64,000 bases of DNA from Endomicrobiales bacterium (GTDB lineage Bacteria; Elusimicrobiota; Endomicrobiia; Endomicrobiales; JALOBY01), in the NCBI GenBank assembly GCA_963796955.1, contig CAWCNJ010000007.1, forward strand, positions 60,632 to 124,631, given 5' to 3'. Positions 22,101-25,100 of this stretch are shown one piece after another. Position numbers: made by a program. Position 1 is the first letter of the stretch. Each line of letters begins with the position of its first letter.

Positions 22101-25100
22101 ATTAGCCGTATCAACACGCGGTCCTGGCGGGACTTCGTGCGTGGCGGAAAACCGGTCGTGTACGGGTTCTGGCACGGCGAACAGTTCATACTCTGCTACG
22201 ACAGACGGCATGAAAATGTTTCTATCATGAGCAGTCTTTCAAAAGACGGTGAGCTCCAGACGGGGATATTAATGCGGCTCGGTTACTCAGTGGTCAGGGG
22301 CTCGTCCTCGAAAGGAGCGGAACGCGCGCTCGTCGAGATGATCCGCAGTGTCAGGGGCGGCCGCTCCGCAGCCTTCGCGATCGACGGCCCGCGCGGCCCG
22401 TATCATAAAGTGAAAAGCGGCGTGCTCTACCTTGCGCAGAAAACCGGCAGTCCTCTGATACCTGTCAGCTGCGCTGCAAAGAACCATGCTATTCTCTCAA
22501 AAGCCTGGGACAAATACGAACTGCCTTACCCGTTTTCCCGTGGTGTAGTCGCCTACGGCGAACCTATGATCATCGGTTCGGGCGATATCATAGAAGAAAA
22601 GGCAGCAGTCTTCGAGGCGGCCGCGGAAAAATTATCACGATTTACGCATGACCATTATTTTTCCGGCGATATCCAGGGATATCTGGAAAACCATCCCCGG
22701 CCGAACATATTGATAGTACAGCCAAGCCGGATAGGCGATGTGGTCTTTACCATGCCGTCAGTGGTCGCGCTGCGGAAAAAATATCCGCATGCCTGGATCG
22801 GCTGGGTGGTGGACGAACGCTGCGCCCCGCTGCTTGCAGGGCATCCGGCGCTGAATGAAGTGATCATTTTTGACCGCAGTAAGATGTCCCTTTCATACAT
22901 TCTTGAATTCAGGCGCACGCTGCGCGAGAAACACGTAGATCTGAGCATTGATTTTCACGGCCTCTTTAAATCCGCTTTCATCGTCGCGTTGGCCGGCGCG
23001 CGGTTCCGGCTTGGTTCATCATCAACGTATGGCATGAAGGAACTCGCCTGGCTGTTCTCAAAACAGATCCCGCCACCCGCGCCTGAGGCCCATTGTATAC
23101 AGCGGCATTTCGAAGTGGCGAGAAAACTCGGCTGCGACGGTGAGCTCGGTTCGTATCAACTCGCTGTTGATAAAGATGCCGGCGAACAAGTACGGCAAAT
23201 TTGCAAGAATGCAGGGATGGATCCAAACAAGCCCGTTATTGCCGTCCATCCCGGCGGCGGCTGGCTTTCACGCAGATGGCCTGCCAAAAACTTCGCTGAA
23301 CTGATCAAAAGCCTGCGCACTGAACTCGGTGTTCAGGTAGCCATTATAGGCGGCAAGGAAGGCGGCGCCGGCGAAGCCGGGATCGCCGAAGAGATACTGA
23401 AAGGTTGTTCGTCTCCGCCCATTGATCTTACCGGTAAAATGAACCTGCCTCAGCTGGTGGCATTTTTGAACGGCGCGGCTGTTTTTGTGGGTAATGAAGC
23501 GGGGCCTATGCATATAGCGGTCGCACTGGGGCGGCCGGTCGTAGGGATAATTGGCCCTACGAATCCTTTCCGTACAGGTCCTTTTGGCGGTCGCACGCGC
23601 ATCGTTCGCGCCTCAGTTCCCTGTCAGCCGTGCCGTAACCGTAATTGCCGAACAATAGAATGCATGTTGTTGATAAAAGTTGAAGATGTTTTCAAAGCGG
23701 TGGCGGAGTCATTAAGAACTCCCTCGGTCCCTCTTTAACAAAAGAGGGAAGATCAATGAGTTCAATGGCAAGATGTACTTCCCCTCTTGAGTTCAAGAGG
23801 GGATAAGAGGGGAGTTGGTGTAATAACAATCGTAGGAGATCATAAATTGAAGAAGCTTGGTCCTGCACTTCGTTACACCGTATTGATGGGTCTGGTCATT
23901 TGGCTTATTCCACTGGCTTTATTTGGTCTTCCGGTCAGTGTGGATGCTTCGAACTGTCTTTCGTTCGTAAGGTTCCCAGATTCATTTCCATACTCAATAC
24001 AGTATTTCAATCTAACCCTTTTCATCTCGGGGTTAGTGGCTGGCATTATTTGGCCTGCGTTTTTCATTGTTCACCCCATATCCATATTTGTGGGGCAACT
24101 CATTTACATTGCCCCTCGATATTTTATACATGCCTGGCCCTCCGGTTCCACATTCATAAGGGGAATGACCGTAATTCTTATCTACTTTGCGGCAATGTCT
24201 ATTTTTTCTGTTATAGGTTCCCTTGTCGGCAGTTCAATCGGATGGTTAGCACGAAAAATCGCCAGCAAATATTCAAATAAAGAAGGTACTGTTGTTAAGT
24301 CAATTAATGAATGACTGGTATGATTTAAGAACTCCCTCAATCCCTCTTTAACCACAAGAGGGAAGTTTAAGGAACTCAAGGCAAGGTGTCCTTCCCCTCT
24401 TGCGTTCAAGAGGGGATACGAGGGGAGTTGGCGCAGAAGTTAGAGGGTTATTTAGTGGATTTGTTTAATAAAAAAGAAACCAGACCAAAACGAAAAGCTT
24501 TACGGAAAAATGCAACTAATGCCGAGATGCGGTTATGGGCAAAGTTGAGAAACAAACAGTTGCTCGGCTATAAATTTTATAGGCAGTATGGCATAGGCTC
24601 ATACATAGCTGATTTTTATTGTCCTCAGAAAAGATTGGTCATAGAATTAGACGGTGGCCAACACTATTCCGACGAGGGAAAATCTTACGATAAGCTGCGT
24701 GAGGAATATATGTTGTCATCGGGGATAGATACAATAAGGTTTTCAAATGCTGATGTGCTGAAGAATACAGAAGAGGTCATGAAGATTCTTTATGAAAGAC
24801 TTGTTTTAAGAACTCCCTCTATCCCTCTTTAACTACAAGAGGGAAGATTTAGGAATTCAATGGCAAGATGTACTTCCCCTCTTGAGTTCAAGAGGGGATA
24901 AGAGGGGAGTTGGTGTGGGGCTTATGGGAGTTAAGGCGTTGGACTTTCTATTATGAAAATACTAATCATTAAACCGAGCTCGTTCGGCGATATCATTCAG
25001 GCAAACCCCGTGGCGCTTGCGCTGCGGCGCAGTTACCCGCATGCGCATATCACCTGGCTTGTGTTCGATGTCTGGGCCGACGTGCTTTCCTGCTTTCCCG

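Follow-up and report, generated by a model that had tools for sequence, protein, structure and literature searches.

Known since the 1990s, BoxC is treated by Holder et al. 2015 (PMC4666352) as part of the BoxC/PIT/TM triplex motif; the repeat is also listed in PMC2267715, in the part of that source used here. According to the sections of PMC4666352 on which we draw, no mobility gene lies near the elements, no stable triplex was seen in vivo, ycjD does not occur in the main text, and the origin and mechanism of the elements were left open. They are about 35 nt long, consist of a pyrimidine and a purine arm with a short loop and a mirror third strand (class II purine motif), and occur as dispersed singles and inverted pairs, mostly between genes. 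The repeat studied here agrees with this description, but compared with E. coli BoxC, as described in the same sections, its stems are A/T-richer, some of its copies lie in frame within genes, and the tails point outward in all six doublets of the genome versus one of five pairs in E. coli K-12 (PMC4666352, Table 1).

Other repeats are accompanied by an enzyme gene. In the Ssn/SRM/NTS system, as presented in the cited passages of Chenal et al. 2025 (PMC11893778), a small single-domain nuclease gene lies amid its own hairpin repeats, with type-specific pairs and many free copies, as is also the case here; the gene is flanked on one side in 71% and on both sides in 42%, and the enzyme cuts single-stranded DNA near the flanking repeats. 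The nuclease of our locus, a DUF559 protein, differs from Ssn in these passages by a Vsr/EDxHD-like rather than a GIY-YIG fold, by another repeat with a third-strand tail, by being known here from sequence, and by a higher flanking rate, which was obtained from a biased sample. The RAYT/REPIN system, in the portion of bioRxiv 10.1101/2021.07.10.451892 considered here, likewise has doublets of about 100 nt, each a pair of short palindromes in inverted orientation around a variable spacer, and a gene of low copy number flanked by its own repeat population. However, our locus has no HUH/tyrosine transposase and few copies (7 sites), and DUF559 turns up at many sites, in contrast to the RAYTs of a given group, whose site is constant.

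The fold and the order E-D-H-D are shared with the EDxHD homing endonucleases such as I-Bth0305I and with Vsr (PMC3239194, cited in part), from which DUF559 differs in that there is no N-terminal NUMOD, no intron or intein and, in the window, no neighbouring cytosine methyltransferase. Insertion sequences and MITEs also have inverted ends around an enzyme gene, but near-identical copies within one genome are missing here, where there is a single gene. The DUF559 family has been classed as Vsr-like in PMC3424549 and PMC1189080, and the relevant passages of both draw no link to a repeat. A DUF559-BoxC link was not found in the literature searched either, a scope that mostly excluded subscription papers. 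Both the repeat and systems of a nuclease plus its own repeat are known. The pairing of DUF559 with BoxC is seen again in numerous bacteria, E. coli among them, and thereby offers a testable partner enzyme for the repeat.

The window, i.e. the whole stretch of 64,000 nucleotides of Endomicrobiales DNA that was analysed, carries an insert of 1214 nt (23739-24952) with a GC content of 0.42 between two heptosyltransferase genes with a GC content of 0.53-0.55. The features are as follows (window positions):

22047..23738, plus strand: host gene, fusion of DUF374 and heptosyltransferase (GT9), from Pfam and the C-termini of 14 orthologs
23717..23816, no strand: doublet R1, with a C-tail plus hairpin unit at 23717-23749 and a hairpin plus G-tail unit at 23780-23816, tails outward
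23847..24314, plus strand: orphan hydrophobic ORF of 155 aa, TTG start behind an AGGAG site, GC 0.42
24330..24429, no strand: doublet R2, units at 24330-24363 and 24393-24429, the second being the left end of the putative DUF559 cassette
24455..24832, plus strand: gene of the DUF559 nuclease with predicted Vsr fold, 125 aa from a probable GTG start (longest ORF from 24386)
24811..24911, no strand: doublet R3, units at 24811-24844 and 24875-24911, the first being the right end of the putative DUF559 cassette
24922..24940, plus strand: additional degenerate copy of the G-rich tail, read from the sequence, which recurs behind the copies at C5 and C6:45.5k and may mark the outer end of the element
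24953..25933, plus strand: host gene, second heptosyltransferase (GT9), from Pfam, adjoining the first GT9 gene in 13 of 14 relatives

The three repeat copies are direct repeats on the plus strand (23712-23821, 24325-24434 and 24806-24916) with a mutual identity of 87-93%; their identity to the genome's remaining doublets is 76-79%. The DUF559 ORF lies between copies 2 and 3 and the orphan ORF between copies 1 and 2, whose units point inward, so that two foreign genes are separated by direct palindromic doublets. The genome-wide survey's note had described the DUF559 gene as flanked on both sides by a 115-nt repeat; the flanking holds, but the core measures 86-101 nt and reaches about 115 nt only if flanks are counted. 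Repeat 1 supplies the last few residues and the stop codon of the first heptosyltransferase, as judged from the C-termini of 14 orthologs, and the stop codon of DUF559 sits in the loop of the first hairpin of R3. Both inserted genes have an SD-like site of their own outside the core tail. For the orphan ORF, no homolog of 85-272 residues was found other than itself, no Pfam or NCBIfam family scored over its cut-off, and the best Atlas value was 0.88 (none at or above 0.9); it is possibly a passenger.

At the heptosyltransferase site, the orphan and DUF559 genes are absent from all 14 relatives (14 loci compared, of 39 with a match). The gap between the GT9 genes is 0-246 nt in 13 of them, the remaining one having another neighbour, and two of these gaps contain repeats. 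One (L078, G118) has a related doublet, of the E. coli BoxC type; the other (L077, G112:C9) has a palindromic repeat without relation to it, which presumably resembles the CGTC/Ssn type. The site attracts unrelated repeats.

The DUF559 protein matches the PF04480 profile with an E value of 5.8e-33 (113.5 bits against a cut-off of 20.6) and stays below the cut-off of the NCBIfam E. coli equivalog (79 versus 218). Its predicted model (pLDDT 86.5) resembles ngo0050 (3hrl) with Z 15.4 and an rmsd of 1.2 over 94 aligned positions, the catalytic domain of I-Bth0305I with Z 11.6, Vsr with Z 9.4 and mitoribosomal proteins with Z 8.3-8.9. E24, D53, E64, D66, H70 and D79 are invariant across 24 aligned sequences, in the residue order of the EDxHD motif as given in part of PMC3239194. 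Judged by the alignment, the candidate catalytic residues are intact in the window protein, their mapping onto Vsr E25/D51/H69/D97 following the motif order in the same part of PMC3239194 and not a superposition. A median dN/dS of 0.10 (81 of 103 close pairs computable) demonstrates purifying selection on DUF559, and internal stop codons occur in 3 of 113 strong loci. Neither a GIY-YIG domain nor an HUH tyrosine transposase family was detected with Pfam at E values up to 0.1, nor an integrase among the 8 local proteins scanned. In L013, L024 and 9 of 113 loci, DUF559 is fused in frame to a long upstream ORF, some of these being restriction-modification-like, and such fused cassettes may have landed in frame.

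Each doublet consists of two inverted units of about 35 nt with a variable spacer. A unit runs from a pyrimidine arm through a loop to the complementary purine arm, after which come a short loop and a G-rich tail in mirror symmetry to that arm. With the tail outward, each of the 13 units in the genome scores 7-8 of 8 purine-motif triads, by a sequence rule only. When the local copies are folded, either strand of each gives a z value between -3.6 and -5.2, none of 200 shuffles being as stable, and the value of -3.9 given by the survey was reproduced (-3.94 for copy 2). By its sequence, the repeat is a variant of the BoxC/PIT/TM intrastrand-triplex family, and the functional unit looks like the hairpin-plus-tail half of about 35 nt rather than the 115-nt doublet. 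The E. coli-type BoxC pattern has no match in this genome, which therefore carries a variant of the wider motif and not TMECO itself. Among 122 genomes of the class the E. coli type was found in 16 and the local type in 10, and copies near-identical to the E. coli consensus occur in the same class. Many units have an extra hairpin between purine arm and tail (L014, L019, L025, L047, L145, L150, L159, L169), and such units are missed by the triad score. Tandem runs of units lie next to DUF559 in L122 (period of 38 nt), L091, L017 and L256. In L258 (Sinorhizobium) the spacers of the doublets on either side of DUF559 are opposite in orientation, those of the window being direct, and the right doublet is interrupted by an IS4 element.

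These properties bear on the suggestion that DUF559 acts on RNA, binding or cutting mRNA hairpins, with the repeats serving as processing or stability signals between operon genes. The similarity of the fold to mitoribosomal proteins, the existence of a Vsr-like RNA regulator, FASTKD4 (from the title of a paper only), and the position of most copies at gene ends are in line with it. Yet the mirror symmetry of arm and tail fits a purine-motif triplex, which cannot form in RNA according to the cited sections of PMC4666352, where PIT elements are also reported to lack promoter and terminator activity, and, the ends of the cassette being in opposite orientation, both senses are present in a single transcript. 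A search of Rfam gave no family either, the best match having E 0.074 and 22 bits where 90 are required. We therefore regard an RNA-level role as very unlikely. A known RNA family was also considered and dismissed, the Rfam search giving no more than a chance miRNA match, and the numbers of predicted promoters and terminators match those of shuffled sequence.

In the genome as a whole (2.10 Mb, 81% complete), the repeat occurs at 7 sites on 4 contigs, namely six doublets and a single half, as the survey had counted. The copies outside the window are:

C5:5189-5275: doublet
C6:14001-14086: doublet
C6:45515-45612: doublet
C8:66846-66878: single half-unit

A strict genome-wide detector returned 12 units and nothing else, 6 of which lie within 1.2 kb around the sole DUF559 gene, one gene only being over the profile cut-off. 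Three copies had been said to have become coding, which is clear in one case. The C5 copy forms a 27-residue block in frame that is missing from a 64%-identical paralog and sits in a loop where other paralogs carry unrelated inserts; a target-site duplication was not definable there, as the empty-site paralog is too diverged at the DNA level. The heptosyltransferase end described above is a marginal case. The copy at C6:45.5k stands in an open frame ahead of a gene; as the two nearest homologs of that gene begin at a later position, the copy is probably an N-terminal extension, putative as regards its translation. The loop with the C5 copy belongs to a large paralog family (C5:~5200, C6:14328, C6:26558, C9:89878) with a different short insert in each paralog, one of BoxC type and one with a short tandem repeat of the 'RTPD' type. 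A further claim, that two relatives carry the repeat between rpmA and obgE, was not borne out (0 of 19 obgE loci of relatives); in this genome a copy is situated immediately downstream of obgE.

For the comparison across genomes, DUF559 loci with a profile score of at least 80 were termed strong. The 113 loci of this kind came from the class (19), a genome scan (14) and metagenomes (80), the last set being the best 80 of 557 confirmed among at least 600 and thus leaning towards the subfamily of the query. After 19 loci with less than 200 nt on one side had been dropped, 94 with full flanks were kept. A pyrimidine-purine hairpin lies within 200 nt in 92 of these 94 loci and on both sides in 77, by a detector that was designed after viewing the flanks from the class and the genome scan and later loosened once; an earlier, stricter version gave 91 of 98 for either side and 67 of 98 for both. 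The survey's smaller count (13 of 18 loci) is thus extended. The same hairpin was found in 0 of 30 loci of a four-helix-bundle family (0 of 31 in the survey), an equally small and patchy family of the same class of which 30 matches were taken, in 1 of 9 weak DUF559 loci and in 27 of 263 other ORF ends of the same loci. Hairpin density reaches 7.5-8.5 per kb in the nearest 100 nt, does not exceed 0.53 per kb at distances above 700 nt and is zero inside the domain. The strong loci without a hairpin are L027 and L134, and of nine extra loci from the class, five are bracketed, one has a weak single unit and three have none. Six named replicons were inspected visually. In three of them units flank the gene on either side, with the G-rich tails directed towards it at least upstream; the exceptions are Deinococcus, where the tails point away, Photobacterium, without an upstream unit, and Neisseria, with only a degenerate one.

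The flanking units are also polar. At least 7 of 8 triads were reached with the tail towards the gene in 134 of 192 units and with the tail away in 26 of 192, compared with an inward mean of 85 (maximum 101, 500 draws) after swapping of tails and of 24 after shuffling of letters; the drop on tail swapping means that arm and tail co-vary. Furthermore, the repeat type follows the protein tree, with 4 changes over 89 labelled rows compared with 26.6 in shuffles (minimum 19) and 20.7 in shuffles within GC strata (minimum 15), on a weakly resolved FastTree tree with 26 of 115 rows untyped. At the level of genomes, a strong DUF559 gene (E of 1e-20 or better) is present in 13 of 16 class genomes with at least four units versus 8 of 106 others (hand count), a comparison that includes non-independent kin and in which a single genus accounts for 44 of the 106. 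The survey's analogy with RAYT genes and REPs therefore survives a larger sample and three controls, and gains tail polarity and co-variation with the protein tree.

Could DUF559 nevertheless be a passenger, retained between repeats that owe their spread to host recombination or to a different enzyme, and this only for a ribosome-binding site (G-rich tail) and a stop codon (C-rich unit)? In 81 of 99 loci the downstream unit indeed either contains the stop codon or has the reading frame continue through it, doublets also lie between ordinary genes (a kaiB-like pair, dnaK-dnaJ), and 3 of the 16 repeat-rich genomes have no DUF559 match (G018, G073 and G085, the last 63% complete). Co-variation, too, is expected if gene and flanks merely travel together. 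On the other hand, the four-helix-bundle family shows no such flanks, the match between repeat type and protein tree holds within GC strata, the two DUF559 paralogs of one genome (G019; 44% identity) each have a different repeat type, and both inserted genes of the window have SD-like sites of their own. On balance, a mere passenger seems quite improbable to us. In G019 (L244, G019:C4:416000-422000), a DUF559 cassette in a biotin operon has, at a distance of 1.3 kb, a short ORF that looks GIY-YIG-like on visual inspection, which would place two repeat-linked nucleases side by side.

Instead, we favour the reading that DUF559 is the repeat's own nuclease and that gene and units form a mobile cassette comparable to Ssn/SRM or RAYT/REP, which by analogy with these systems we hold to be fairly probable. 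Gene and ends are inherited together as a typed unit; that DUF559 binds and cuts the unit is inferred, as are movement, the strand state and the route of copying. The cassette would comprise the DUF559 gene and one unit per side with tails inward, and its Vsr-fold product would recognise its own unit type and nick at or beside the unit, probably in single-stranded DNA. Repair or recombination at the nick would then copy units, doublets and occasionally an entire cassette elsewhere, chiefly into gene ends and tolerant loops. It counts against this reading that strand transfer is not known as an activity of a nuclease domain by itself.

The case can be followed in E. coli, where ycjD is 41% identical to the DUF559 protein of the window. 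The published TMECO 9 lies 168 nt past the ycjD stop codon, and in K-12 units occur on the 3' side only, none being found upstream. Strain B1.H1.1 has an intact inverted unit whose loop contains the stop codon, an arrangement also present in the window. The cited part of PMC12817139 describes a 12-nt 3' extension of ycjD and does not mention repeats; this extension is probably a repeat tail. A named candidate enzyme makes the BoxC question directly testable in E. coli K-12 (ycjD, 23 listed copies), and a homolog structure already exists (3hrl). At the sapF-fabI site (L051, L088-L090) the alternative fillings are ycjD with BoxC units or the eef efflux operon (PMC12817139, same part), and a degenerate second copy of the ycjD 3' end with a unit lies between the two units.

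The gene is present in 3378 of 5426 E. coli genomes, in nearly all of them at one place (median 1, maximum 2), and the two strains without ycjD that were examined have the efflux operon at the site and no unit, which indicates a replacement in either direction and not a clean empty site. Such constancy, together with usually one gene per type and genome, the low dN/dS and the few internal stops, would suit a domesticated partner that, like RAYT, has become sedentary and useful to the host, maintaining the repeats without moving any more. Against this, ycjD is missing from the remaining E. coli genomes, the window gene is absent from its site in all 14 relatives and has a low GC content, and among 28 class loci (20 genomes) a single pair shares flanking genes, which amounts to 27 sites for 28 loci within one class, some flanks ending at contig ends. 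A purely sedentary DUF559 is accordingly hard to credit.

The mobile cassette that we prefer does not resemble an insertion sequence in its recent history. DUF559 paralogs within a genome are 36-56% identical (9 pairs), so that the gene comes in from outside and does not multiply in bursts, and recent IS-like transposition was ruled out on this ground. An integron-like array as a general feature lacks support: inward brackets around other genes are rare and mostly enclose ordinary genes, the four found elsewhere are not clearly cassettes, and doublets on both sides of the gene occur in 1 of 113 loci with the strict detector. For the window itself, the array of doublet, gene, doublet, gene and doublet might, speculatively, have expanded as direct doublets recombined with each other. 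If an inward-tailed cassette is closed at its outer ends, the junction is exactly a tail-out doublet, and such a circle inserted into a doublet would produce the array observed; filling of neighbouring gaps alone gives the same picture. In one public read run (share 0.07), the contigs cover 6 of 30 bins, with no joint among those.

A more far-reaching version, in which DUF559/YcjD proteins read the intrastrand triplex and BoxC-ended, transposase-free cassettes found throughout bacteria form circles with a tail-out junction, re-insert into doublets and carry foreign genes such as the orphan, appears unlikely. If the pairing is functional, DUF559 would join RAYT and Ssn as a third fold, unrelated to theirs, that goes with hairpin repeats of its own, and might be a triplex-reading nuclease; short inserts rich in proline and glycine that keep appearing in annotated proteins would be explained as well.

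Elsewhere in the window, a secD-like gene (17831-19247) is seemingly split into two frames near 18634-18642, suggesting a frameshift or an assembly error.
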